Of a stretch of 39,010 bases of DNA, positions 4,470-39,010 are shown one piece after another. Below the pieces are notes generated by a model. The model did not search any database. It was not told the DNA's origin and saw only the letters and a list, made by a program, of their open reading frames with translations. Each line of letters starts with the position of its first letter. Within the stretch, counting starts at the first letter, position 1. Source of the DNA: an uncultured bacterium (lineage in GTDB: Bacteria; Patescibacteriota; Minisyncoccia; Phycocordibacterales; UBA9973); contig CAITGV010000005.1 in assembly GCA_903892035.1 (NCBI GenBank), positions 1 to 39,010 on the forward strand. Reading direction: 5' to 3'. A program made the position numbers and the translations under genes.

Positions 4470-5690
4470 ATGCAAAGAATAAAACATAAAATTAAAAAAA
4501 CATTCTCTTCCCTAGCAATTCGTAATTATCGTTTATATTTTTTTGGAATCACAATTTCTACAACTGGAACTTGGATGCAAAATATTGGCCAGGCTTGGCT
4601 TGTGCTCAAATTGACCAATTCAGGCACTGCTTTAGGTATAACTATCGCACTTCAATTCTTACCAATGCTTTTTTTAGGCCCTTGGGGCGGAGTTTTGGTA
4701 GATCGATATTCAAAAAGAAAAATTTTATACATTACTCAAACTATTGCTGGAATTTTAGCATTGATACTTGGCATACTAGTTTTCACAAATTTTGTTCAAC
4801 TTTGGATGGTTTACGTTTTAGCATTTTTACTCGGACTTATTAGCGTTGTTGATAATCCTGCGCGACAAACCTTCATCACTGAAATGGTTGGTGAAAAACA
4901 TTTAATGAATGCAGTATCAGTCAATGGTATTCAAATTAATCTCACTCGAGTGATCGGTCCTGCTCTTGCTGCAATTTTAATTGCGACTCTTGGCATGGCT
5001 CCGCTCTTTTTTATTAATGCGATTTCATATGTTGCTGTGATTGTTGCTTTACTTTTAATGAATAAAGATGAACTTTTAACAGTTACTCCTGTTGATAAAA
5101 CCCCAGGTCAAATAAAAGAAGGATTCAAGTATATGATGCGATCAATGACAATAAGCACAACTCTTTTAATGCTTGCTATCATCGGCACTTTTACTTATGA
5201 ATTTTCTGTTGTTCTTCCCCTATTTTCTCAATTTACTTTTCATGGCGATGCATCATCTTTTGCTTTACTGATGGCGGGTACTGGCATTGGTGCAGTTTTT
5301 GGTTCAATAAGTATTGCTCATTCGAAAAAAGTAAATTTAAATACAATTGTTAAAAAAAGTTTGTATTTTGCAATCTCGATGTTATTTTTTGCTTTTTCTC
5401 CTACGCTTTATTTCGCAATACTTATGAGCGTGATTGTTGGTTTTTGTTCAATTAATTTTCTTTCACTTTCAAATGTACTTTTACAAATTGAAAGCGTACC
5501 TGAAATGCGCGGACGTGTAATGGCTATTTGGGCTGTAGCTTTTCTTGGCTCCACTCCAATCGGTGGACCAATTATTGGTTTTATTAGTGAACATGCAAAT
5601 CCTCGTATAGCACTTCTTGTCGGATCACTTGCAGCCTTTGTCGCTTCTTATATTGGCTTTCGTGCACTTAAAAAACACAAATTAAATTAG
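4470..5690 (+). CDS. MFS transporter (MFS_3/DUF894-like, 12 TM)
   Basis: RNYRLYFFG...GTWMQ..GQAWLV, GGVLVDRYSKRK (motif A), DNPARQ, EMRGRVMA; about 12 hydrophobic helices. Confidence 0.92.
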   Translation: MQRIKHKIKKTFSSLAIRNYRLYFFGITISTTGTWMQNIGQAWLVLKLTNSGTALGITIALQFLPMLFLGPWGGVLVDRYSKRKILYITQTIAGILALILGILVFTNFVQLWMVYVLAFLLGLISVVDNPARQTFITEMVGEKHLMNAVSVNGIQINLTRVIGPALAAILIATLGMAPLFFINAISYVAVIVALLLMNKDELLTVTPVDKTPGQIKEGFKYMMRSMTISTTLLMLAIIGTFTYEFSVVLPLFSQFTFHGDASSFALLMAGTGIGAVFGSISIAHSKKVNLNTIVKKSLYFAISMLFFAFSPTLYFAILMSVIVGFCSINFLSLSNVLLQIESVPEMRGRVMAIWAVAFLGSTPIGGPIIGFISEHANPRIALLVGSLAAFVASYIGFRALKKHKLN

Positions 5691-6937
5691 GAATTCATAC
5701 CGGCAATGTAGCCAGTAGTCCAACATATCTGCAAAGAAAAGCCTCCACTTGGTCTATTTATGTGAAGCAAATCCCCTGTTATATATAAATTTTTATAAAT
5801 ATTTGAGCGCATTGTTCTCATATCAATTTCTTTGAGATTTACTCCTCCGTCAGCCACAACTGCTCGATCAAAGCCCATAAGTCCTATGATGGTCATTGGT
5901 ATTGCTTTTAAAAGATTTACAATTTGTTTACGTTCATCTTTTGTAATACTGTGAACTTTTGTATCTGGATTTATATTATTCAAAATTGAAAGTATCGCTT
6001 CTTTTGTGCCGTGAGGTGCAATTTCATCAAAAATATTCTTTAGCATTTTATTTTTATTTAAATCAAATATTTTTATTATTTTGTCTTCCAAAGCCACAAT
6101 ATCAGTATCGGGATATGCATCGATATTTGCTGTAACAATTCCTTCATGAATCAAATCACTGACTTTACCTGCAAGATTTAAAATCAGTGGCCCAGAGATG
6201 CCAAAATGCGTAAACAGAAGCTTGCCAGTTTTATTAAATTTCTTTACACCATTTACATAAAAAGTAATTTTCATAAATGATAAAGAAACACCAGCAAGTG
6301 AATGGACCCATTTTTCTTTTACAGCAAGTGGGACAATTGTTGGCGTCGGTGACATAACTTTATGACCTAAATCTGAAAGCCAAGTAAAACCATCGCCAGT
6401 AGAACCAGTTTCAGGATGCGACATTCCGCCAGTTGCAATGATATACGAATTTGCTTTATATGTTGTACCAGAAGCATTTACTCCTGTTATAAGTCCCCCA
6501 TTTGACAATATTCTCTTTACGTGTGCTTCTGTTTTAATTGTGACTCCCCCACTTTTAATATATTTATCTAAAGTATTAAAAACATCAAGTGCTTTTTCTG
6601 TATTTGGAAATGCTCTTTTGCGAGCTTGCACGACTAGGGGAAGACCCAATTTTTCAAAAAAATTAAATGTATCTTTATTGCTAAATTGTGAAAATGGTGA
6701 GTATAAAAACTGCTCAGCTTTTCCATAATTTTTCAAAAAAATTCTAGTGTCTTCTTCGGCATTTGTGACATTACATCTTCCACCACCAGTAATTTTTAAT
6801 TTCTCACCGAGTAATTTATTTTTCTCTAGTATTAAAACTTTTTTACCACGCGCCGCCGCTGTTCCAGCCGCCATCATCCCAGATGCGCCCCCACCGATAA
6901 CTATGACGTCATAATGCATTTGTGTATTGTCTTTCAT
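5687..6937 (-). CDS. HI0933/BaiN-family NAD(P)/FAD-dependent flavoprotein
   Basis: GGGASG, LGEKLKITGGGRCNVTN, ATGGMSHPETGSTGDG, FTHFGISGP, VADGGV, GGFSLQ..WTTG. Confidence 0.94.
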   Translation of the reverse strand: MKDNTQMHYDVIVIGGGASGMMAAGTAAARGKKVLILEKNKLLGEKLKITGGGRCNVTNAEEDTRIFLKNYGKAEQFLYSPFSQFSNKDTFNFFEKLGLPLVVQARKRAFPNTEKALDVFNTLDKYIKSGGVTIKTEAHVKRILSNGGLITGVNASGTTYKANSYIIATGGMSHPETGSTGDGFTWLSDLGHKVMSPTPTIVPLAVKEKWVHSLAGVSLSFMKITFYVNGVKKFNKTGKLLFTHFGISGPLILNLAGKVSDLIHEGIVTANIDAYPDTDIVALEDKIIKIFDLNKNKMLKNIFDEIAPHGTKEAILSILNNINPDTKVHSITKDERKQIVNLLKAIPMTIIGLMGFDRAVVADGGVNLKEIDMRTMRSNIYKNLYITGDLLHINRPSGGFSLQICWTTGYIAGMNS

Positions 6938-11353: not shown

Positions 11354-12286
11354 ATGAAAAATTTCTTCATGCAGCCCATTAACGGAAAAATCCTTTTAGG
11401 AATTGGACTTTCTGTCGTATCACTTTCAAGTTTTGGCTATATTTTTTACACATATATTCATACAATAAATAAACTTGATGTATTATCTACTGATTTAGTA
11501 AATACCAAAAATGAATATCAGGCTAAAATATATGAAAACCAAACTGATATTAAAAAAATGTCAGATGAAATTAGTTCTATAGTAAATACTCTTACCGATG
11601 AACAGAAAAAAAGTTTATTAATTGGTGATCAGCTTGGTGCTATAGGTCAACAAGTTGGAGCCATTGGTGGAACAGTGGGAAATCTTGAAAAGCTTTCGAA
11701 AACTGACCCAGAATTACTTAAAAAATACTCAAAAGTATATTTTTTAAATGAACACTACGTTCCACTTTCACTTTCAAATATTGACTCAAAGTATTTAATT
11801 ATAAAAAATACTCCTCTTCAGATTCATAGTAGCGTTGCACCTTATTTACAAAGATTACTTGATGATTCTACTTCCTCTGGTTTATCACCAGAAATTATTT
11901 CTGCATTTCGTTCGTTTGGAAGCCAGGCACTTTTAAAATCTAGTTACAAGTTTACCTACGGCGCTGGTACTGCAAATGCTTTTTCCGCCGAACAAGGTTA
12001 CTCAGAACACCAGCTTGGCACCACTGTTGACTTTGCAACTCCTACGACTGGCACTGGTTTTTCTGGTTTTGATAAAACTCCAGAATATACTTGGCTTACC
12101 AACAATGCTTATAAATATGGCTTCATAATTTCCTATCCTGAAAATAATTCATATTATAAATACGAACCATGGCATTGGAGATTTGTCGGTGTTGCTCTTG
12201 CTACAACTCTTCATAATAGAAATGAATACTTTTACAATATGGACCAGCGTGAAATTGACACATATTTGGCAAATATTTTTGATTAG
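11354..12286 (+). CDS. M15B (VanY-like) D-Ala-D-Ala carboxypeptidase with TM anchor and coiled coil
   Basis: SAFRSF..Q, SEHQLG..VD and EPWHWRFVG Zn motifs. Start set at ATG 11354, 7 nt after TACAAT. Confidence 0.9.
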   Translation: MKNFFMQPINGKILLGIGLSVVSLSSFGYIFYTYIHTINKLDVLSTDLVNTKNEYQAKIYENQTDIKKMSDEISSIVNTLTDEQKKSLLIGDQLGAIGQQVGAIGGTVGNLEKLSKTDPELLKKYSKVYFLNEHYVPLSLSNIDSKYLIIKNTPLQIHSSVAPYLQRLLDDSTSSGLSPEIISAFRSFGSQALLKSSYKFTYGAGTANAFSAEQGYSEHQLGTTVDFATPTTGTGFSGFDKTPEYTWLTNNAYKYGFIISYPENNSYYKYEPWHWRFVGVALATTLHNRNEYFYNMDQREIDTYLANIFD

Positions 12287-12329: not shown

Positions 12330-13322
12330 ATGAAATGGACAGCCGAATCAGTAACCCCAATGCATCCCGATAAAATTTGTGACCGCATAAGTGACGGTAT
12401 TTTGGACGCATGTTTAACAATTGACCCATATTCTCGCGTAGCGGCAGAAGCTATGGGTGGACACGGTGTCGTATGCATAACTGGAGAGCTCACAACAAAT
12501 GCTTATATTGATATTCGAGGTATTGTAGAAAAAGCTGTAGGAAAGCCTTACGGAGTGCAGATAAATATAGTTAAACAATCAAATGAAATTGCTCAAGGGG
12601 TAGATATAGGAGGAGCTGGTGACCAAGGAGTAATGGTTGGTTTTGCTTGTAGAGAAACTCCAGAACTTATGCCAAAAGAGGTAATGCTTGCTCGAAGACT
12701 CGGACAATTTATTTTCGCTCGAGCACCTTACGATGGAAAAACTCAAATTACTTGGGATTCTGACACAGACGAAGTCGGTACAGTTATCGCTTCATTTCAA
12801 AATACTACAGTTGTACAACTCGAAGGCTATGTTAAAGAATGGTTGAGTGATAAAAAAGTTGCAAGTGATTTAAAAATCCATTGCAATCCGGCTGGTGAAT
12901 GGAAAATGGGTGGTTTTGATGCTGATACAGGACTAACTGGTAGAAAAATTGTTGTAGATCAATATGGTTTGCGTTGCCCTATCGGTGGAGGAGCATTTTC
13001 TGGTAAAGACGCTACGAAAGTAGACCGCTCTGGTGCTTATATTGCACGCAAGAAAGCTATCACAATTTTGAGTGAAAATCTTGATGCAAAAGAAGTTACT
13101 TTCTACCTTGGTTATGCAATTGGAATTGCTGAGCCAGTATGGGCAAAAGCTTTGATGATCATGAATGATGGTACAAAAAAAGAAATTGACTACAAAGAAG
13201 GTCTTGAAGTATTTACTCCAAACAAAATTATTGAAATTCTAAAACTTTACGAACCAAAGTTTGCAAAAACTGCAGAATGGGGACATTTTGGTAATGGTTT
13301 CGACTGGGACGTCGGATTCTAA
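12330..13322 (+). CDS. metK: S-adenosylmethionine synthetase (compact)
   Basis: ESVT..HPDK.CDRISD, GAGDQG, DTGLTGRK, GGGAFSGKDATKVDRSGAY, GHFG. Confidence 0.93.
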   Translation: MKWTAESVTPMHPDKICDRISDGILDACLTIDPYSRVAAEAMGGHGVVCITGELTTNAYIDIRGIVEKAVGKPYGVQINIVKQSNEIAQGVDIGGAGDQGVMVGFACRETPELMPKEVMLARRLGQFIFARAPYDGKTQITWDSDTDEVGTVIASFQNTTVVQLEGYVKEWLSDKKVASDLKIHCNPAGEWKMGGFDADTGLTGRKIVVDQYGLRCPIGGGAFSGKDATKVDRSGAYIARKKAITILSENLDAKEVTFYLGYAIGIAEPVWAKALMIMNDGTKKEIDYKEGLEVFTPNKIIEILKLYEPKFAKTAEWGHFGNGFDWDVGF

Positions 13323-31646: not shown

Positions 31647-33347
31647 CTATTTTGTAGGAGCTGGTACTTCAGGAAGAGTGAAGCTAAACGTGGAACCCAT
31701 GTCTACACCTGGAGATTCAACTTTTATGCCTCCTTTATGGGCATCTAAAATCTGCTTCACAAGGTAAAGCCCAAGACCTGATCCGCCAGCATTTACTTTC
31801 TGTCCTGCGCCACGCGAGAACTTTTCAAAAAGTTTTGTTTTACCTTCTTCGGAAATTCCAATACCAGAATCGGATATAGACACTGTGACATTTCCACCAT
31901 TTCGAGATAGATTTACTTTTATAAAACCTTGTTTTGTGTATTTCAATGAATTATCAATTAAATTCACAAGTACCTGACGAATTTTCACATTATCAGCTGA
32001 AACAAAAATCTCTCCTTCAAAAGTCTTTTCAAAAGTAAGCGCGAGGCCTTTTGCTGTAGCAGTGACATTCAATTCTTTTACTACGGTCTCTGCCATCTTG
32101 GCTAAATCCACTGGCGTAAATTCAAAACGCATTCCTCCTTGTTCAATTTTCGAGACATCGAGCAAGTCTTCCACAACTCGTGACAAATTTTGTGCAGACT
32201 GAAATACGCGATCAATCGCCTCTTTTTGCTCAGGAGTAATGGAACCAAACGAACCCTCAGAAAGCATTGAAGTATAGCCCTTGATAGCAGTCAAAGGGCT
32301 TCGAAGCTGATGCGAAGCGAGCGAAAGAAATTCTGTCTTCAACTTATCAAGAGATTTTAATTTTTCATTCGCGTCACTTAATTTCATATTTGTATCTTCT
32401 AATTTCAAACGTAGTTGTTCTAACCTTTCACGCTGTTCAACTTCACGTTTTACTGCTTTAATTAAAAATTGCCCCAAAACAATTGATACAATAAACCCAA
32501 TACCATTGAGAATAAAATTTATGTGTGTTTTTATAAAAAAGAACTGTGAACCGATAAGTATAACAAGACCCCACACCAAAGCTTCAGTCGCTAGAAGTTT
32601 AATATTAAATGTCCTAAACCTCGTTATAAGAATACTTATAAAAATCATAAATATAACAATTCCCAAAAGTCCGTACATTTCAAGTGAAGAATTAGCCAAT
32701 ACACCTATTTGAGTAAGATAAGATGCCAAAAATATCATCACAAAAAATACAAACAAGAACAGCTCAATTCCTACTCCCATATATATTATCTGTTTTTTAA
32801 AATCTGAGGTAGATATTCGATACTTTCTAATAAGTAGAACAAAGATCCAAACAAGTGCAAGCACACCAAGTAGGGTGTAGTAAATTTTAAATGGTAACCA
32901 TTCAAACCGAAAAGCATCACAGTCAGTTATATTAAAACCACTTATATTTATTGAGGTTGTAGAAAAAAGAAAAATAGGAGCTAAAAGAGTAATAAAAATA
33001 AATTTAATTTTATTAGAAATATCTTCTTTATTTAAAAATACATATATAAAATATATACTAAGTATAGCAAGTAAACCCAAAATCAAACTGAAGAAAGACC
33101 ATGCAAACATTACAATATTACTATGAATATTTGTCCATGTAATTAAATTTACAGTTGCCCAAAATGAAAAAAGAATAGAAATTAAAAAAAACAATCGATT
33201 GAGCAGAAATTTTCTACCGCTCCAAAAAACAAAGAATCCAACAAATAGCGAAATTATTATAGCTGGAATATGAGCATAGTATAACAATGATGGTACATCA
33301 GAGGAATAAATAAAATATGTTGGTTCTGGAAATAAATAGCAAATCAT
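31647..33347 (-). CDS. Membrane-bound sensor histidine kinase (multi-TM input domain)
   Basis: About 8 TM helices and a coiled coil, then H-box FLSLASHQLRSPL, N-box NLIDNSLKY, G1 DSGIG, FEKF, G2 GSGLGL. Confidence 0.93.
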   Translation of the reverse strand: MICYLFPEPTYFIYSSDVPSLLYYAHIPAIIISLFVGFFVFWSGRKFLLNRLFFLISILFSFWATVNLITWTNIHSNIVMFAWSFFSLILGLLAILSIYFIYVFLNKEDISNKIKFIFITLLAPIFLFSTTSINISGFNITDCDAFRFEWLPFKIYYTLLGVLALVWIFVLLIRKYRISTSDFKKQIIYMGVGIELFLFVFFVMIFLASYLTQIGVLANSSLEMYGLLGIVIFMIFISILITRFRTFNIKLLATEALVWGLVILIGSQFFFIKTHINFILNGIGFIVSIVLGQFLIKAVKREVEQRERLEQLRLKLEDTNMKLSDANEKLKSLDKLKTEFLSLASHQLRSPLTAIKGYTSMLSEGSFGSITPEQKEAIDRVFQSAQNLSRVVEDLLDVSKIEQGGMRFEFTPVDLAKMAETVVKELNVTATAKGLALTFEKTFEGEIFVSADNVKIRQVLVNLIDNSLKYTKQGFIKVNLSRNGGNVTVSISDSGIGISEEGKTKLFEKFSRGAGQKVNAGGSGLGLYLVKQILDAHKGGIKVESPGVDMGSTFSFTLPEVPAPTK

Positions 33348-33739
33348 GAGTTTATATTATTAGTATTATTCTGTTGTGCTGGTATGTCGCATACTTTTTC
33401 TGTAATATTCTTATCACAGTATGTTACTGAACACTCCCTGTCTCCCTGAAGGCATTGATTTGAAGCTTCACAATTCGTAATATCTTTACCACATTCTTTA
33501 TATAAATCTGGTTCATATTTTTGTATTTCAGAATAATAATCTGGCTTAGCACAAGCACTATCTCCACCGCAATCCACAAAACATTTATGTGCGGATGGAT
33601 CACAAGAAGCATGGTACCACACAATGTAATCTTGTTTAATAAAAAAGTGATTATAAGAAATAATACCAATAACAAGAATGAGTATTGTTATTAAATAGAA
33701 GAAAAAGTTTTTCCGAATTTTTAAAAATAAGAATTGCAT
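33344..33739 (-). CDS. Hypothetical Cys-rich membrane-anchored protein (10 Cys)
   Basis: One N-terminal TM, then 10 Cys; overlaps the kinase start by 4 bp. Confidence 0.8.
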   Translation of the reverse strand: MQFLFLKIRKNFFFYLITILILVIGIISYNHFFIKQDYIVWYHASCDPSAHKCFVDCGGDSACAKPDYYSEIQKYEPDLYKECGKDITNCEASNQCLQGDRECSVTYCDKNITEKVCDIPAQQNNTNNINS

Positions 33740-33744
33740 GTTTA

Positions 33745-34641
33745 TTATAATTGATTTTTTTTGAAAAGTTGACTGGAAATAATATTATAACATAGTTGAG
33801 CAGCTCCATATTCTGTCCGTACATCATTTGGAACTGGTGCAACTTCTAATATCCCTAAACCAATGACACTTTTTCTATTTACAATTTCTTTAAGTAAATT
33901 TATTGTATACCACCATTCAAGCCCACCCTGCACAGGTGTACCAGTGGCAGGTAAAAATGCAGGATCAATGCCATCTACGTCAATTTCAATATACACTTTA
34001 TCAGTTTTTATTGAACTAATTATTTCTTCAATGGTTGGAACTTTCCCTAATCCCCACTCAAACACAGTAATAGGATTATTAGTAAAAAAATCATATTCAT
34101 CTTTTGAATATGATCGAATTCCAACTTGCACTAAATTAAAACCAAATTCAAAAGCTCGACGCATAACACACGCATGCGCGAAAGTACTTGGTCGTGACTG
34201 GTCTGGATTTGCATTTCTATCATCCTGGCGTAAGTCTGGATGAGCGTCTATTTGTAAAATAGTAATATCTTTAGAATTTTCTAATTCAGAAATAGCCTGA
34301 AAAGCACCGATGGAAACTGAGTGTTCTCCACCTAGTATTACTGGAAATCTTTCTTTTTTTGAATAAATACTTTTATATTCGTCCTTAACCTTCAAAACCA
34401 TATCTTCCGGATATAATTCGTTTAAATCACCTAAATCTAAATGTGCAATTTTATGTTCATAGCCAGTTTCCCTCTTAGTGTACCTATCGAAAAACTCAAC
34501 ATCTTCTTCCAGGCATTTTACAATTGCTTTTCCTCCATCAATAGCTCCCTTTCGATGGGAAGCCGTTCGGTCGTAGCCAATTGTTAAGAGCAAAACCTCA
34601 GATTCATCTATTTTTTTACAGTTTATAATGGAGTCAATCAT
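33745..34641 (-). CDS. speB: Agmatinase (ureohydrolase family)
   Basis: GGEHSVS, IDAHPDLR, HAC, GIRS, IDVDGIDP, PATGTPVQGG; close to speA. Confidence 0.88.
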   Translation of the reverse strand: MIDSIINCKKIDESEVLLLTIGYDRTASHRKGAIDGGKAIVKCLEEDVEFFDRYTKRETGYEHKIAHLDLGDLNELYPEDMVLKVKDEYKSIYSKKERFPVILGGEHSVSIGAFQAISELENSKDITILQIDAHPDLRQDDRNANPDQSRPSTFAHACVMRRAFEFGFNLVQVGIRSYSKDEYDFFTNNPITVFEWGLGKVPTIEEIISSIKTDKVYIEIDVDGIDPAFLPATGTPVQGGLEWWYTINLLKEIVNRKSVIGLGILEVAPVPNDVRTEYGAAQLCYNIISSQLFKKNQL

Positions 34642-34721
34642 AAGTATATTTAATAATAATATTTTTCAATTATTTTGTATTTAAATTATATCATATAAAT
34701 TAGTTAAACATATAGTGATTA

Positions 34722-35642
34722 TTACTTAGAAAGAAACAACAAATACGTCCCAATTCCTGTTATCAGTATTGCAATAACTTTCTGCCAAATATGTTTTGCT
34801 TGTATTTTTTCAACTGATATTTTTGGGAAAAACATAGTTAAAAATATGCCAATCAATAATGCAAAAATTGACTGAAATGAGTCCGTCAAAAGGACAAGTG
34901 CAACAGGAGCAAGCATATAAGCAACCGCAAAGACTATGTTACCTAAAATGTACAAGAATTCATTTAAAATTCCTAAGGATAAGACGACTTTTGAATTACC
35001 CTTGATTGCTGAAATAAAATTTGTACGATACGAACGAATAAATAAAAAAAGTATAATACCAACTAATACCAAACTAAGGTCTTCCCAAAACAGCGAGCGC
35101 CAAACATTTTCCTGAATTGCTACTGATTTAAAAATAACTGCTTCGAGTGCCCAGCATAAACATGCAGCAAGCATTGGTAAAACTGTTTTCTTTCGAAGCT
35201 TAAATTTATTTTCTGAATCTACTTCAAATGAAATTACTGATGTTCCTAAAATTATTATTGCCATTGAGATGAGTTGTATCTGTGTAAGAATTTCTCCAAG
35301 AATAAAATAACCGAGTATATATCCAAACACAGGTACGAGCTGATAGAACACAATAACAATTGAGGCCTCTTCTTCTTTTATTGCTTGTAAATAGAACCAC
35401 AATACTAGAACATTTAGTATACCCACAACAGCGAGCGCGAGAATCTTTATTCCATCGACATCTAGAACTGAGGGATCTGCAAAAAATATAAATGGTAGGG
35501 CAAGAATTGCCACAAAAGAAGATAGGATGAGAATAGTACCAACACCACCGTGTTTAAAATATTTTTCTAGAAGAATTTTATCTATATGGTTCGTTGTTGC
35601 GTACAGCAATGGACCAATTAATGCTATGAAAAACCAGTTCAT
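34722..35642 (-). CDS. EamA/DMT-family transporter (10 TM)
   Basis: Two-repeat 10-helix pattern; FYQLVPVF..ILGYFILGE.L. Confidence 0.88.
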   Translation of the reverse strand: MNWFFIALIGPLLYATTNHIDKILLEKYFKHGGVGTILILSSFVAILALPFIFFADPSVLDVDGIKILALAVVGILNVLVLWFYLQAIKEEEASIVIVFYQLVPVFGYILGYFILGEILTQIQLISMAIIILGTSVISFEVDSENKFKLRKKTVLPMLAACLCWALEAVIFKSVAIQENVWRSLFWEDLSLVLVGIILFLFIRSYRTNFISAIKGNSKVVLSLGILNEFLYILGNIVFAVAYMLAPVALVLLTDSFQSIFALLIGIFLTMFFPKISVEKIQAKHIWQKVIAILITGIGTYLLFLSK

Positions 35643-35655
35643 AGGTATGAGTATA

Positions 35656-36555
35656 CTACTGTGTATGTTTCTTTACAATGTATTTATTTAAAAATGAATC
35701 AGGTTTATAACTCTCTTTTGATTTTCTTAACCCGAGTATACCTAGATCTTGCTGCCAATTAACATACTGCATTCCATGAGCTTCTAAAAATTTTGCTTCT
35801 TCCCAATCTAAAATATCACTCACCTTACAAGATAAATCTGTCTTAATAAAATGAGAAATCGCATATGAATCAGAGCAAATTTCATACATAGTAAAACCAA
35901 TTAAGAGCTTATTTTTATATATTGAAACTACTTTAATTTTATCATTTTTTATTTCTAAAAATCTTTTGAATGCTTGGTACTCGTTAAAATCTGGGAAATT
36001 ATACATATTTTTATATATTGCCCATTTTTCAAAAATTTCAGTATACTCGTCCTTAGCAATGTCTTGCAACAAACAATTTTTTACTTCATAATCTGGGTGT
36101 AATTTTAGAAATTTTCTAATACTCTTACTTGAATTATGACCTTGCCAATTATTTATATTTGATAAATGTTTAACTGAATATATATAGTCGTGTGAATCTA
36201 TATCTGGAGTAAAATCAAATTCTTTTTTATCTAATAAATTTACAGTTATTTCTGGAATTAATTCTAGTAAATTTATTTTATAATTTTTCTCAGAAAATTT
36301 AATTAACTCTTTAGCGGTCTCATTAACCATATTATCTCCAAGAAAAGAAAGAAAAGTTTGACCATCTATGTAATCTGAGAACTTAACTACAAGATTTCCA
36401 TTCAAAATAGAAAGTCCCATTTCTCCTTTTAAATCCCAAGCCCACATGCTTGAAAAATTAAAATCTGAATACGGAGGGTACTTTGATGTAAGATTTTCCA
36501 CATCTACCCTGTCGGTAAGTTCAAGTTTCTTAAATATTGGAAATAATGGAATCAT
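35656..36555 (-). CDS. DUF2156/MprF C-terminal-like (GNAT-fold) protein
   Basis: SDFNFSSMWAW, D..DYIYSVKHL, HFIKTD, YVNWQQDLGILGLRKSKESYKP match the family pattern as I recall it. Soluble, no TM. Confidence 0.75.
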   Translation of the reverse strand: MIPLFPIFKKLELTDRVDVENLTSKYPPYSDFNFSSMWAWDLKGEMGLSILNGNLVVKFSDYIDGQTFLSFLGDNMVNETAKELIKFSEKNYKINLLELIPEITVNLLDKKEFDFTPDIDSHDYIYSVKHLSNINNWQGHNSSKSIRKFLKLHPDYEVKNCLLQDIAKDEYTEIFEKWAIYKNMYNFPDFNEYQAFKRFLEIKNDKIKVVSIYKNKLLIGFTMYEICSDSYAISHFIKTDLSCKVSDILDWEEAKFLEAHGMQYVNWQQDLGILGLRKSKESYKPDSFLNKYIVKKHTQ

Positions 36556-36581
36556 AAGACCCTAAAAAATAGGGTTTACAT

Positions 36582-36623
36582 AGTATACCATATTTATAGT
36601 CATAAGTAAACCACTTATCCACT
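36582..36623 (-). promoter_or_regulatory. Promoter of the DUF2156 gene with an adjacent DnaA-box-like 9-mer
   Basis: TTTACT-N17-TATACT; ttatccact at 36615-36623 (1 mismatch to TTATCCACA). Confidence 0.6.
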
Positions 36624-36629
36624 TTTTGT

Positions 36630-38021
36630 TTATTTATCTCCATTTCCCCAACCAAAGAGTTTGCCGACCATTTCGGCTGTCTCGCGCTTGCGAGCGACTT
36701 TTATTGTACCGTCTTGAGCTATGAGCTTGATTGGTGAAGAAAGTAGGCAATGGTGTGAAGCAAGGGCGTCCTGATATGCACCAGTGTCGAATACTGCGAT
36801 GTATTGGTCTCCGCTGTCTTTGAGCTTTGGTAGGAGCATATATGTGCCTCCGGCTGTGTATTTGTCGTCTGAGTCACAAGAGCTTCCTGCAAGCCACACA
36901 CGCTTCAAATCTTTTGAATTTGCATTGTTTACCGGAGCGACGTGCCATTTTTGGTGAATTGCCCATGTATCAATGAGATCATTCATAAAGCTTCCGTCGA
37001 TCACATACCAGGACTTTGCATTGCCTTTATAAATTGGTTTTTCAGCAATAGCTTTATAAATTGTCATTTGCGCAGGAGCAGTGACATACTGACCCCACTC
37101 TACAGCGAGGTTTGGATGGCGAATTCCTGCTTTGTCGGACATTTTTTTAAGTAATTTAACAATTTTATTTGCCATTATTTTTGCCGTGTAAAATTTCTTT
37201 TTTTCATAAGGAATACTCATTCCTCCACCGATGTCGAGCGTGTCGAGGTTTGGATGAATTTTTGTCATCTTTGCATAAATGTCGAAACCGCGCTTCACAC
37301 CTTCGAGTAAACTTTTTTGTGTAGAAATTTGTGAACCCATGTGATAATGCATTATTTTCAAATTTTTTATTTTTGAAAGTGCAAGAACTTTTTTCTCAGA
37401 AATTCCGAAGCGATCGATTTTTTTATCCCATCTTGAATCGGCTTTCATATCGAGGTCGACACGTACACCAATATCGCCTCTTATTTTTACAAGGTCTTCA
37501 AGTTCACCTTCGTCTTCAGCAATAGGAATAATATTTAAGCCTTTTGATTTCAATTCGATAATAAGGTCTAGATATGCACCAGTCTTTGGACCATTGCAAA
37601 GTACGCGAATTTTCGAATGAAATTTCTCTCCCTCCCAGAGCTTCTTAATTAAATATAGTTCATTTGCAGACGTGACTTCCATATGCGCACCCTCAGAAAG
37701 AAGTGGCATGATGAATTCTTTATTTTGATTTACTTTCATCGGATAATGATAAAAGAATTTACCACGGTAGCCATATATTTTCATATATGCGTCGAAATAT
37801 TCTATGAGGTCAGAAAGTCGGTCTTCTAAAATAAATGGAAAAACAATTTCCATTGAACTTCCGTATTTTTTTACGATTTGGTGAATATTGTATATATAGT
37901 TTCCTTCCTTCACAGTCAGCTCTCCGTCTTTGGTCACGTTGAAATACTGCGTGTTGAATTCAGAAACACCCAATTTCCAATATTTTCTCCAATCTTTCTT
38001 CGCACTAACTTTCTTTTTCAT
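36630..38021 (-). CDS. speA: Biosynthetic-type arginine decarboxylase (alanine-racemase fold), short form
   Basis: YPMKVNQ (PLP Lys), LCNGPK, HYHMGSQ, LDIGGG, SCDSDD, GAYQD; 463 aa. Confidence 0.85.
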   Translation of the reverse strand: MKKKVSAKKDWRKYWKLGVSEFNTQYFNVTKDGELTVKEGNYIYNIHQIVKKYGSSMEIVFPFILEDRLSDLIEYFDAYMKIYGYRGKFFYHYPMKVNQNKEFIMPLLSEGAHMEVTSANELYLIKKLWEGEKFHSKIRVLCNGPKTGAYLDLIIELKSKGLNIIPIAEDEGELEDLVKIRGDIGVRVDLDMKADSRWDKKIDRFGISEKKVLALSKIKNLKIMHYHMGSQISTQKSLLEGVKRGFDIYAKMTKIHPNLDTLDIGGGMSIPYEKKKFYTAKIMANKIVKLLKKMSDKAGIRHPNLAVEWGQYVTAPAQMTIYKAIAEKPIYKGNAKSWYVIDGSFMNDLIDTWAIHQKWHVAPVNNANSKDLKRVWLAGSSCDSDDKYTAGGTYMLLPKLKDSGDQYIAVFDTGAYQDALASHHCLLSSPIKLIAQDGTIKVARKRETAEMVGKLFGWGNGDK

Positions 38022-38032
38022 TTCTTTAAAAA

Positions 38033-38100
38033 TTTGTATTCCAGCTTCCCCACCGTTTACGTTAGGCCTTGCCTAGCGAAAATCAATTGAAACACCAAAA
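38033..38100 (-). promoter_or_regulatory. Candidate structured 5'-UTR of speA
   Basis: Outer stem gtgtttc/ggaatac with 2 G-U pairs encloses hairpin cgctaggc-aag-gcctaacg (38078-38060), inside a ~95-nt leader. Confidence 0.4.
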
Positions 38101-38124
38101 GACAACAAAACTATTAATATGGCA

Positions 38125-38175
38125 ATATTACCATATTCTCATTGAAAGTAAAGGCCCAAAACGACTTTATCCACA
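38125..38175 (-). promoter_or_regulatory. speA promoter with a perfect DnaA box upstream
   Basis: TTTACT (38152-38147)-N16-TAATAT (38130-38125) with TGn; TTATCCACA at 38167-38175. Confidence 0.6.
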
Positions 38176-38186
38176 GAAATAGCAAT

Positions 38187-38900
38187 CTAGCCCCTCAAAG
38201 CTTTCAGCCACATTTCAATGATCACCAAAGCTTGTTTTTTATTCATTACTTTATTGTGCCCAGGCAAGACTAGATTGAAATCTAATCCTTGAATTTTCTT
38301 AAGAAATTTAAAGAACGACTTCTTATCCGAATTTTTCATAGTCATGTATATCTTGCCGTTGTACAAAGTATCTCCGGTAATTATGATTTTATTTTTTTTA
38401 TCAAAAAGAATATAGGAGTCATCAGTATGCCCCGGTGTATGTATTATCTCGAAAGAATAAGTCCCATTTGAAATAACATTCTTTTTATAAATGGATGGTT
38501 TTTTAATTTTGTCTACATTGAATTTTTTACAAAATTCCTTAACATTAACTCCAAGTTTTTTGCCAATATTTATATCAAAGTCTTTGTCGTGCAAATATTC
38601 CAATCCAAACAGTTTTTTATTGCTTAAATTTTCAGCAACTTTTCCACAAATTAACAACTCATTGGGTTCAAAAAACTTCATTCCACCGATATGATCAAAA
38701 TGCCCGTGGGTAATGAATACTTTTGGGTTCATTATTTTTTTCTTCAATAAGAATTCTTTAAGATTTTCTAAACCCATACCACTATCAACAACTAAATCAA
38801 ATTTCTTTCCTTTTACGATAAAAATATTTGCATGCTCTTTAAAGTACGGCTCGGATATTTTGTATATATTTTCTTTAATTTTGTCTATTTTGAATAACAT
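38187..38900 (-). CDS. MBL-fold metallo-hydrolase (glyoxalase II-like)
   Basis: VVDSGMG, THGHFDHIGG, HTPGHTDDS, TGDTL, PGH. Confidence 0.9.
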   Translation of the reverse strand: MLFKIDKIKENIYKISEPYFKEHANIFIVKGKKFDLVVDSGMGLENLKEFLLKKKIMNPKVFITHGHFDHIGGMKFFEPNELLICGKVAENLSNKKLFGLEYLHDKDFDINIGKKLGVNVKEFCKKFNVDKIKKPSIYKKNVISNGTYSFEIIHTPGHTDDSYILFDKKNKIIITGDTLYNGKIYMTMKNSDKKSFFKFLKKIQGLDFNLVLPGHNKVMNKKQALVIIEMWLKALRG

Positions 38901-38950
38901 AAAATTTTGCCAGTTATTATTATAACACTTCGACCTACTGATAATTATAG

Positions 38951-38989
38951 AAAACAGGAAGATAACTCAAAAAAGTCACTTCCTGTTTT
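38951..38989 (-). terminator. Terminator probably belonging to a minus-strand gene beyond the window
   Basis: aaaacaggaag/cttcctgtttt 11-bp stem. Confidence 0.6.
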
Positions 38990-39010
38990 TTCTACTAATA
39001 CCCTTCAAAT

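Follow-up and report, generated by a model that had tools for sequence, protein, structure and literature searches.

A stand-alone DUF2156 protein paired with an EamA transporter beside agmatine-related genes: a candidate polyamine-aminoacylation module in the Patescibacteria

The window analysed here is a 39-kb stretch of DNA (39,010 nucleotides; contig CAITGV010000005.1 of assembly GCA_903892035.1) from an uncultured bacterium of the Candidate Phyla Radiation (CPR). Towards its right-hand end lies a gene module (33745-38021, plus a downstream extension), all of it on the minus strand, which encodes a SpeA-like decarboxylase, a stand-alone DUF2156 protein, an EamA transporter and an agmatinase:

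36630..38021, minus strand: SpeA-like arginine decarboxylase of 463 amino acids (aa), pyridoxal phosphate (PLP)-dependent, alanine-racemase (AR) fold, by Pfam and NCBIfam
35656..36555, minus strand: stand-alone DUF2156 dual-GNAT protein of 299 aa, PF09924 (LPG_synthase_C/DUF2156) at 45 bits against a cutoff of 27.5
34722..35642, minus strand: EamA/DMT transporter of 306 aa, PF00892 at 53 bits on its first half, about 10 transmembrane (TM) segments by hydropathy
33745..34641, minus strand: agmatinase SpeB, a ureohydrolase of 298 aa, Arginase family at 173 bits and TIGR01230 at 191.3 against a cutoff of 174.3

An earlier note on this DNA had described speA, DUF2156-like, EamA and speB as four co-directional genes, and the Pfam and NCBIfam searches confirm each of them at these positions. 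The gaps along speA-DUF2156-EamA-speB measure 74, 13 and 80 bp, and the co-directional run extends past speB into a gene for a Cys-rich protein, which starts 5 bp after speB and is overlapped by 4 bp by a histidine kinase (HK) gene.

The DUF2156 protein has no predicted TM or hydrophobic segment in its 299 residues, of which residues 30-294 cover positions 8-297 of the 298 in the PF09924 profile. Its AlphaFold2 model (pLDDT 94.9) is matched best in Foldseek by 2HQY (TM-score 0.83, probability 1.0), a stand-alone DUF2156 protein of Bacteroides thetaiotaomicron with the same soluble architecture of ~300 aa and the EDLGIEGLRKAK motif in common; 2HQY is a structure only and adds no functional information on the protein of the window. 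Probability 1.0 is also reached with the MprF synthase domains 4V34-36, 5VRV, 6LV0 and 7DUW (TM-score ~0.6) and with FemX, and this structure comparison, together with the missing TM segment, bears out the expectation that the fold is that of the MprF catalytic domain or FemX without a flippase domain. By sequence, a profile of the DUF2156 family searched against the PDB finds 2HQY as its sole match (E=4e-34, full length, 24% identity), and the MprF structures stay out of its reach at E<=1. The family is large: clustered at 50% identity it has 1,231 representatives at E<=1e-30, nearly all of them stand-alone and ~300 aa long.

Helix 141-152 of the model, NSSKSIRKFLKL, lies between the two GNAT halves and is basic throughout the family, Lys or Arg being present at K144 in 29/32, at R147 in 26/32 and at K151 in 30/32 sequences. 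Invariant in the family alignment are K238, K280 (within a GLRKSK motif), N266, Q269, D270 and G272, as are the acidic residues D15, D31, D123, E192 and E225 and the aromatic residues Y29, F32, W40, Y124 and W178. A basic inter-GNAT helix and a C-terminal lysine are described features of DUF2156 and FemX enzymes (PMC7334510, PMC12945691), and by analogy with the former study helix 141-152 probably contacts the tRNA acceptor stem. The protein thus shares with the catalytic domain of MprF and other aminoacyl-phosphatidylglycerol synthases the Pfam family, the dual-GNAT fold, the basic helix and the C-terminal GL(R)xxK lysine (PMC7334510). It differs in its TM-score of only ~0.6, in the missing N-terminal flippase/TM domain, in its partner, an EamA transporter, and in its genomic associates, which are agmatine enzymes and not lipid genes. 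It is not an MprF, since it has no flippase domain and its entire length is accounted for by the synthase domain. Small amines are known acceptors for aminoacyl-tRNA-dependent enzymes of the PF09924 or GNAT fold: VlmA and Ady7 use alkyl-hydroxylamines, and Orf11/Sba18 use the amine of an amino sugar (PMC9379638, PMC12945691). We predict that the DUF2156 protein is likewise an aminoacyl-tRNA-dependent transferase, acting on agmatine or putrescine.

The GNAT fold would also accommodate acyl-CoA-dependent N-acylation (or N-acetylation), which would neutralise agmatine or putrescine so that it can be exported, DUF2156 and EamA then forming a detoxification pair in the manner of SSAT or SpeG plus an exporter; tandem-GNAT acetyltransferases do occur among the weaker structural matches, and a conventional GNAT (PF00583) is encoded between EamA and DUF2156 in one surveyed locus (L015). 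However, the model is nearer to aminoacyl-tRNA enzymes (TM-score 0.53-0.63 for the MprF synthase domains, Sbb17/Sba18 and FemX) than to acetyl-CoA tandem GNATs (0.33-0.52), a glycine-rich acyl-CoA loop of the Q/RxxGxG/A type is present at β4-α3 in neither GNAT half, and the helix of the tRNA-binding type is conserved. In addition, the enzyme that replaces DUF2156 in some loci, described below, is an amino-acid-activating ATP-grasp and not an acyl-CoA enzyme. Acyl-CoA chemistry is therefore very improbable here.

The gene neighbourhood was surveyed with DUF2156 as anchor in 165 loci (80 genome loci, 5 contigs of the closest relatives and 80 metagenome loci; given L-numbers below), in which open reading frames (ORFs) were called and clustered and family hidden Markov models (HMMs) were built. 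The non-redundant loci number 139. Flanks of 2.5 kb or more on either side of DUF2156 are available in 78 of them, and neighbours were counted in these 78 within 2.5 kb of DUF2156. The conserved core is DUF2156 with EamA, found in 52/78 loci (67%) in either order and also in high-GC Rhodocyclaceae/Sulfuritalea loci. In the CPR a Cys-rich membrane protein and a multi-TM HK commonly come after this pair. An HK is a neighbour in 62 loci, a pyruvoyl decarboxylase of the S-adenosylmethionine decarboxylase (AdoMetDC) fold (PF02675) in 24, a Cys-rich protein in 23, a SET-domain protein in nine, a PrmA/PRMT-like methyltransferase in seven, speB in four and speA in none. The literal speA-DUF2156-EamA-speB block is thus unique to the window, because speA (0/78) and speB (4/78) are so rarely beside DUF2156 elsewhere. 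Indeed, the four closest relatives (DUF2156 68-73% identical) have neither gene; they read DUF2156>AdoMet_dc>EamA and continue, where the contig is long enough, with a small Cys-rich gene and an HK, and their upstream contexts are mutually unrelated. Taken at its word, the refutation named in the earlier note, that DUF2156 and EamA are not co-conserved with speA/speB in relatives, is all but reached. The suggested polyamine link survives in another form: the DUF2156-EamA pair itself recurs, and with it agmatine-related enzymes of non-homologous families, not speA and speB specifically.

These enzymes are of several kinds. The AdoMetDC-fold decarboxylase, present in 31% of the loci, occurs in more than 20 local gene orders, on either side of DUF2156 and on both strands. 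Aligned with an approximate Thermotoga maritima reference sequence, the AdoMetDC-like proteins fall into at least three subfamilies: that of the closest relatives scores 48-51 bits with TIGR03330 (cutoff 75.65) and reads ESGIQIHT(L)xPK where the AdoMetDC type has ESH…HTWPE, while another passes this equivalog cutoff (81 bits). SpeD homologues of the CPR can be ornithine decarboxylases (ODCs), and neofunctionalised SpeD-type arginine decarboxylases (ADCs) and ODCs have been reported in the CPR (PMC10407285, Li et al.), with which the subfamily of the closest relatives appears compatible; a tblastn search against phage genomes did not match the biochemically validated phage homologues. A second decarboxylase, PvlArgDC (94-101 bits), adjoins EamA-DUF2156 in L015/L109 and L054. 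Agmatinases occupy four different slots, including DUF2156>speB>HK in L108, whose agmatinase passes TIGR01230 and shares 81% identity with that of the window, and Cys>speB>HK in L018/L110, L120, L122 and L125. In L079 and L063 EamA>DUF2156 is closely preceded by a speA>DHS-like>speB cluster; in L011 such a cluster is ~5 kb away on the upstream side. Finally, an agmatine-deiminase-family gene stands beside a DUF2156 homologue in three high-GC Myxococcota loci (L057:1157-2614, L053:2233-3612 and L044:6155-7654), where the DUF2156 homologues are 386-428 aa long with a C-terminal low-complexity tail and the neighbour is a divergent protein of the agmatine-deiminase/PAD_porph family. Separately, in L057 a small, weakly SMR-like membrane protein is encoded between these two genes.

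Taken together, the DUF2156-EamA pair is strongly linked to agmatine- or putrescine-forming or -modifying enzymes of four unrelated folds. AdoMetDC-like and speA/speB genes never occur together in the 80 genome loci. The backbone HK>CysRS<CorA<…RecR<DnaB< is common to the window, L026 and L079, which carry three different amine-enzyme combinations with DUF2156 and EamA upstream of it. We read the window as a putative in-place non-orthologous displacement, SpeA and SpeB occupying the place that a small pyruvoyl decarboxylase has in the relatives. Searches of the 39 kb for a remnant of an AdoMetDC-like gene, for DHS/SpeY, for PvlArgDC and for a PurD-like gene were all negative. A truncated AdoMetDC-like gene does occur just upstream of DUF2156 in L122:3364-3552 and L123:3272-3460, where the first ~45 codons are left and the pyruvoyl-forming site is lost, and in L122 an intact agmatinase lies downstream of it. 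These remnants are a possible snapshot of decarboxylase turnover.

In the window itself the SpeA-like protein matches Orn_Arg_deC_N (PF02784, 81 bits) and Orn_DAP_Arg_deC (PF00278), and its best NCBIfam models are those of SpeA, both scoring under cutoff (204 against 369 bits and 194 against 624 bits). Alignment with E. coli SpeA (3NZQ) proceeds in two blocks, query 59-323 with SpeA 90-375 and query 338-443 with SpeA 485-598, and retains the PLP-lysine motif YPMKVNQ, DIGGGM and SCDSD/CDSD. From the two blocks it follows that the ~110-residue insertion of SpeA (~375-485) is absent from the protein, which has 463 aa compared with ~630 aa for full-length SpeA. 'Ancestral' AR-fold ADCs are described as those without a four-helix bundle of ~110 aa (PMC13625781), and the SpeA-like protein appears to fit this form. 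It is 70-83% identical to many proteins of the Patescibacteria, some of them annotated as arginine decarboxylase, and is among their best-conserved proteins. We predict that it supplies agmatine from arginine, the specificity for arginine being inferred because an agmatinase adjoins and because homologues sit in speA>Arginase>DS clusters. The agmatinase has readable Mn-binding motifs in its translation (GGEHS, DAHPD and DVDGIDP) and is predicted to hydrolyse agmatine, possibly also N-acylated agmatine, to the putrescine form and urea. The closest relative of the SpeA-like protein (83% identity) is found in L166 (entry 11459-11971), a region with further genes for a PvlArgDC and a carbamoyltransferase close to c3-c6-HK-CysRS (c3 and c6 are described below); two arginine decarboxylases of different fold thus share a neighbourhood with no DUF2156 or EamA within its 8-kb flanks.

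A second survey, made from the decarboxylase side, found 1,492 AdoMetDC-like homologues, and five of their contexts were sampled. In two there is neither an EamA nor an ATP-grasp partner, and the other three, all of them CPR loci (L172/173, L176/177 and L179), read EamA>AdoMet_dc>PurD-like ATP-grasp>HK:

L172:5535-6848, L176:5530-6840 and L179:5532-6845: PurD-like ATP-grasp of 437 aa with GARS_A and GARS_C domains

The flanks of these loci are orthologous to those of the DUF2156 loci (EamA 44%, decarboxylase 75% and HK 40% identity). DUF2156 was not found in the ATP-grasp loci, nor the ATP-grasp in any of the 165 DUF2156-anchored loci. The ATP-grasp protein scores 115 bits with TIGR00877 (cutoff 288) and aligns to PurD only from about residue 75, its N-terminal acceptor domain having diverged; it has the look of an orphan paralogue, its hosts being generally without purine synthesis. 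PurD forms an amide between the carboxylate of glycine and a primary amine, that of phosphoribosylamine. Because this chemistry has the same net product as aminoacyl transfer to an amine, the swap supports amide formation in the DUF2156 slot. It is the strongest single argument for what this slot probably does, and it lends independent support to an aminoacylated amine as the proposed product.

The best explanation of these observations is that two genes make up the functional core, one for a soluble, stand-alone DUF2156 dual-GNAT protein and one for an EamA/DMT transporter, and that this unit works on agmatine or putrescine. The EamA protein has a weak best NCBIfam match to 'carboxylate/amino acid/amine transporter' and is predicted to move the cationic product, its precursor or both. 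Specifically, we propose that DUF2156 N-aminoacylates agmatine or putrescine with aminoacyl-tRNA as the donor and that EamA moves the substrate or the product, a proposal to which we give somewhat less than an even chance. SpeA, to judge by its family and motifs, would decarboxylate arginine to agmatine, a step that would fall elsewhere to AdoMetDC-fold or PvlArgDC enzymes. DUF2156 would then transfer the aminoacyl group from aminoacyl-tRNA to the free primary amine, giving N-aminoacyl-agmatine or N-aminoacyl-putrescine. Agmatinase would remove urea from the guanidino end, before or after aminoacylation, and EamA would export the cationic conjugate, perhaps with arginine or agmatine moving the other way. 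Agmatinase or AguA-like enzymes and, in some lineages, SET-domain and PRMT-like methyltransferases may modify the far end of the molecule, whether guanidino or amino.

SET-domain and PrmA/PRMT-like class I methyltransferases recur in the module (L030:9472-10989, L034 and L135; in the CPR L051, L133, L141, L118 and L129). Enzymes of these types presumably act on lysine- or arginine-like side chains, which putrescine and agmatine would mimic, though small-molecule SET methyltransferases would be unusual. In Sulfuritalea (GC 0.62) the order is DUF2156>SET>MTase>EamA (MTase, methyltransferase) with no decarboxylase, and Proteobacterial modules of this kind fit hosts that already make agmatine or putrescine. 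In one clade (L031-L033 and L038) a class IIb aminoacyl-tRNA synthetase, LysRS-like, is encoded directly upstream of AdoMetDC-like/EamA/DUF2156; it may hint at the donor amino acid, or be a coincidence.

Two families of characterised systems offer a precedent for such chemistry. In the valanimycin cluster, VlmD is the amino-acid decarboxylase that makes the amine. The pathway logic proposed here would be closest to this scheme of a decarboxylase followed by VlmA. Like the DUF2156 protein of the window, VlmA and Ady7 of the valanimycin and azodyrecin pathways are PF09924 enzymes, and they acylate a small amine-derived acceptor from Ser- or Ala-tRNA (PMC9379638, PMC12945691). Unlike those pathways, neither the module nor its recurrent neighbours include a flavin N-hydroxylase (VlmH/VlmR) or azoxy-forming genes, and therefore an amide on an amine is expected and not an O-ester on a hydroxylamine; an HI0933-like flavoprotein is encoded in the window at 5687-6937, 27 kb from the module. 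Further differences are the proposed acceptor, agmatine or putrescine, the CPR as opposed to actinomycete host, and the transporter as constant partner. The streptothricin-type enzymes Orf11/Sba18/Sbb17 and FemX are likewise dual-GNAT aminoacyl-tRNA enzymes that form an amide on the free amine of a soluble substrate (TM-score 0.53-0.61; PMC12945691), but they belong to the FemABX-like Pfam lineage, are 9-12% identical and use an amino sugar and UDP-MurNAc-pentapeptide as acceptors.

The relationship to MprF raises a different interpretation, namely a split form of envelope modification in which DUF2156 places Lys, Arg or Ala on a membrane lipid or a peptidoglycan or lipid-linked precursor, EamA is the flippase, and polyamine genes lie nearby since both manage surface charge. 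Apart from those of the VlmA type, all well-studied DUF2156 enzymes acylate lipids (PMC7334510), and the fold of the protein matches the MprF synthase domains as well as FemX. Fmt/ArnA-like formyltransferases in a few loci, the downstream multi-TM kinase, which would suit envelope sensing, and the SET and PRMT-like methyltransferases, which could tailor lipid-bound Lys or Arg, point the same way. The DMT superfamily, moreover, includes flippases of lipid-linked sugars such as ArnE/F. Such a function is nevertheless unlikely, in our estimate: the family profile misses every MprF in the PDB at E<=1 and reaches 2HQY only, there is no TM or flippase domain on DUF2156 and no lipid-metabolism gene in the module, and lipid modification leaves unexplained both the repeated recruitment of agmatinase, of AguA-like genes and of arginine decarboxylases with three unrelated folds and the presence of a soluble PurD-like amide ligase in the DUF2156 slot.

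The amide chemistry predicted for the module, from a carboxylate and an amine, is that of PurD and of glutathionylspermidine synthetase, which joins a peptide carboxylate to a polyamine; the window itself, in contrast, carries DUF2156 and not an ATP-grasp. Amide formation is also what separates the module from the arginine decarboxylase-transporter systems AdiA-AdiC and Chlamydia AaxB-AaxC, which it resembles in having an arginine decarboxylase beside a transporter and, in some related loci, a PvlArgDC like AaxB. Here the transporter is of the DMT/EamA and not the APC type, an amide-forming enzyme is always present, agmatinase and AguA-like tailoring genes occur, and acid-resistance regulators do not. 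A decarboxylation-antiport cycle for pH control or proton-motive force, with a decarboxylase and an EamA exchanger of arginine and agmatine or of agmatine and putrescine and with DUF2156 peripheral or regulatory, would suit the CPR as energy-limited fermenters, the weak NCBIfam match of EamA and the direct adjacency of a small pyruvoyl decarboxylase (AdoMetDC-fold or PvlArgDC) to the transporter, an arrangement like that of the two known systems. Yet the DUF2156-EamA linkage (67%) is tighter than that of the decarboxylase with EamA (31%), the Proteobacterial modules combine DUF2156, SET, MTase and EamA without any decarboxylase, and the enzyme that always fills the slot, DUF2156 or ATP-grasp, would be needless for a pure exchange cycle. 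We judge the antiport cycle decidedly improbable.

Several observations weigh against aminoacylation of agmatine or putrescine. The stand-alone DUF2156 clade is known from sequences and the 2HQY structure alone, to which no function is assigned, and the acceptors of known DUF2156 enzymes are mostly lipids. The replacement by an ATP-grasp rests on three organisms, and the AdoMetDC-like subfamily of the closest relatives could have any of three activities, that of a bona fide AdoMetDC, of an ADC or of an ODC. The SpeA-like gene is widespread in the Patescibacteria and usually located elsewhere, for example in speA>Arginase>DS clusters of the homospermidine type, and its adjacency here could be ordinary polyamine biosynthesis kept by inherited gene order (L079, L166). 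About 65% of the loci have no amine enzyme within 2.5 kb of DUF2156. The genes form at most a putative operon, promoter-like sites and hairpins in the module gaps being no more numerous than in shuffled sequence. At 36559-36610, in the speA-DUF2156 gap directly before the DUF2156 start codon, a promoter-like TTTACT-17-TATACT preceded by TG is accompanied by a hairpin of 6 bp (ACCCTA…TAGGGT), but these are only suggestive.

The ubiquity of SpeA-like genes and the loci without an adjacent amine enzyme also count for a purely coincidental neighbourhood, in which SpeA and SpeB carry out plain putrescine or homospermidine synthesis, DUF2156-EamA is an unrelated inserted pair, and the whole reflects an inherited Paceibacteria gene order. 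Indeed, the backbone of the window, L079 and L166 has speA and an HK as neighbours with or without DUF2156 and EamA. The DUF2156 gene also has a GC of 0.27 (GC at third codon positions, GC3, 0.20) against 0.33-0.38 in the neighbouring genes, and its best matches (73% identity, L082-type loci) are discordant with that of the adjacent kinase, L026, whose DUF2156 is only 44% identical; this low GC and the different loci of the best matches suggest cassette exchange between CPR lineages. Against coincidence, the linkage outlasts extensive reshuffling, being seen in over 20 gene orders, on either strand and behind upstream contexts that differ, and it involves four non-homologous agmatine-related families; inherited Paceibacteria gene order cannot, moreover, account for the recurrence with an AguA-like gene in the Myxococcota. 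We therefore consider coincidence an unlikely account of the module.

The run of genes downstream of speB may add a sensory component to the proposed aminoacylation and export of agmatine or putrescine:

33344..33739, minus strand: Cys-rich membrane-anchored protein of 131 aa, one N-terminal TM segment and a Cys-rich extracytoplasmic domain
31647..33347, minus strand: histidine kinase of 566 aa, HisKA and HATPase_c, about 9-10 N-terminal TM segments

The 131-aa protein has no Pfam or NCBIfam match, and the stop of its gene overlaps the start of the kinase gene. Its homologues are placed between EamA/DUF2156 and the HK in the 23 loci counted above, and it is a possible co-sensor, its membership of the module being uncertain. 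The HK, found downstream of DUF2156 in the 62/78 loci and also in the ATP-grasp variant loci, is a weak candidate for a regulator or sensor of the module; its linkage may be partly inherited gene order, because an HK is also found in L166 without DUF2156 and EamA. Conceivably the two proteins respond to the product or to the condition of the envelope. No response regulator is encoded in the window. In some 20 loci (L008, L046, L050, L054, L079 and others), 'c3' (~277 aa, multi-TM) and 'c6' (~95 aa, soluble), neither with a Pfam match, lie between DUF2156 and a shorter kinase, an arrangement that stands in for the Cys-rich protein and the long kinase. The idea that c3 (277 aa) is a split-off sensor domain of the kinase was rejected, as its HMM matched nothing in the kinases. 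The Fmt/ArnA-like formyltransferases (Formyl_trans_N) are encoded, with a hydrophobic N-terminus, between the Cys-rich gene and the kinase in L009, L014, L069, L099 and L119.

A bolder version of the proposal would have a hitherto unknown class of metabolites, N-aminoacyl-agmatines or -putrescines that are N-methylated in some lineages, produced in the Paceibacteria and, through gene transfer, in part of the Proteobacteria and Myxococcota. These organisms would make them by means of DUF2156 or an interchangeable PurD-derived ligase, export them through the DMT transporter and sense them through the Cys-rich receptor and the HK, forming a synthase-exporter-sensor circuit for signalling or host interaction in ultra-small episymbionts; as a whole we think this distinctly unlikely. 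A search of the full-text literature found no description of a DUF2156-EamA-agmatine module. On the best reading the module is undescribed, whereas the kind of enzyme is a variation on known tRNA-dependent GNAT transferases. CPR genomes are minimal, yet they keep a large stand-alone DUF2156 family beside a dedicated transporter and agmatine-pathway genes. Aminoacylation of agmatine or putrescine, if true, would be the first tRNA-dependent polyamine conjugation and would take the chemistry of DUF2156 enzymes past lipids and the antibiotics of actinomycetes. It would also assign a role to the orphan family typified by 2HQY and point to a candidate cationic metabolite, secreted or on the cell surface, in bacteria with poorly understood host interactions. 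The interchange of DUF2156 with an ATP-grasp, and that among three decarboxylase folds, makes the hypothesis directly testable.

The remaining genes of the window are typical CPR housekeeping genes, including those for murein synthesis, aminoacyl-tRNA synthetases, DnaB, RecR, ScpAB and a short MetK, and homologues of the window genes are labelled Paceibacterota or Nomurabacteria. No riboswitch, for guanidine or otherwise, was found with Rfam at the gathering threshold, nor at E<=1 on 33300-39010. The gene for a protein of the metallo-β-lactamase (MBL) fold upstream of the module (38187-38900) was considered as a member and left out because it has no homologue in related loci. In the Bacteroidota locus L039:8903-9376, DUF2156 is followed by a half-size, single-domain EamA of 157 aa and then by an ORF of 2,445 aa. 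The MetK homologue of the window (12330-13322) is short at 330 aa, its N-terminal/central domain match looking truncated, and MetK genes adjoin the DUF2156 module in several relatives (L024, L063, L106 and L124).

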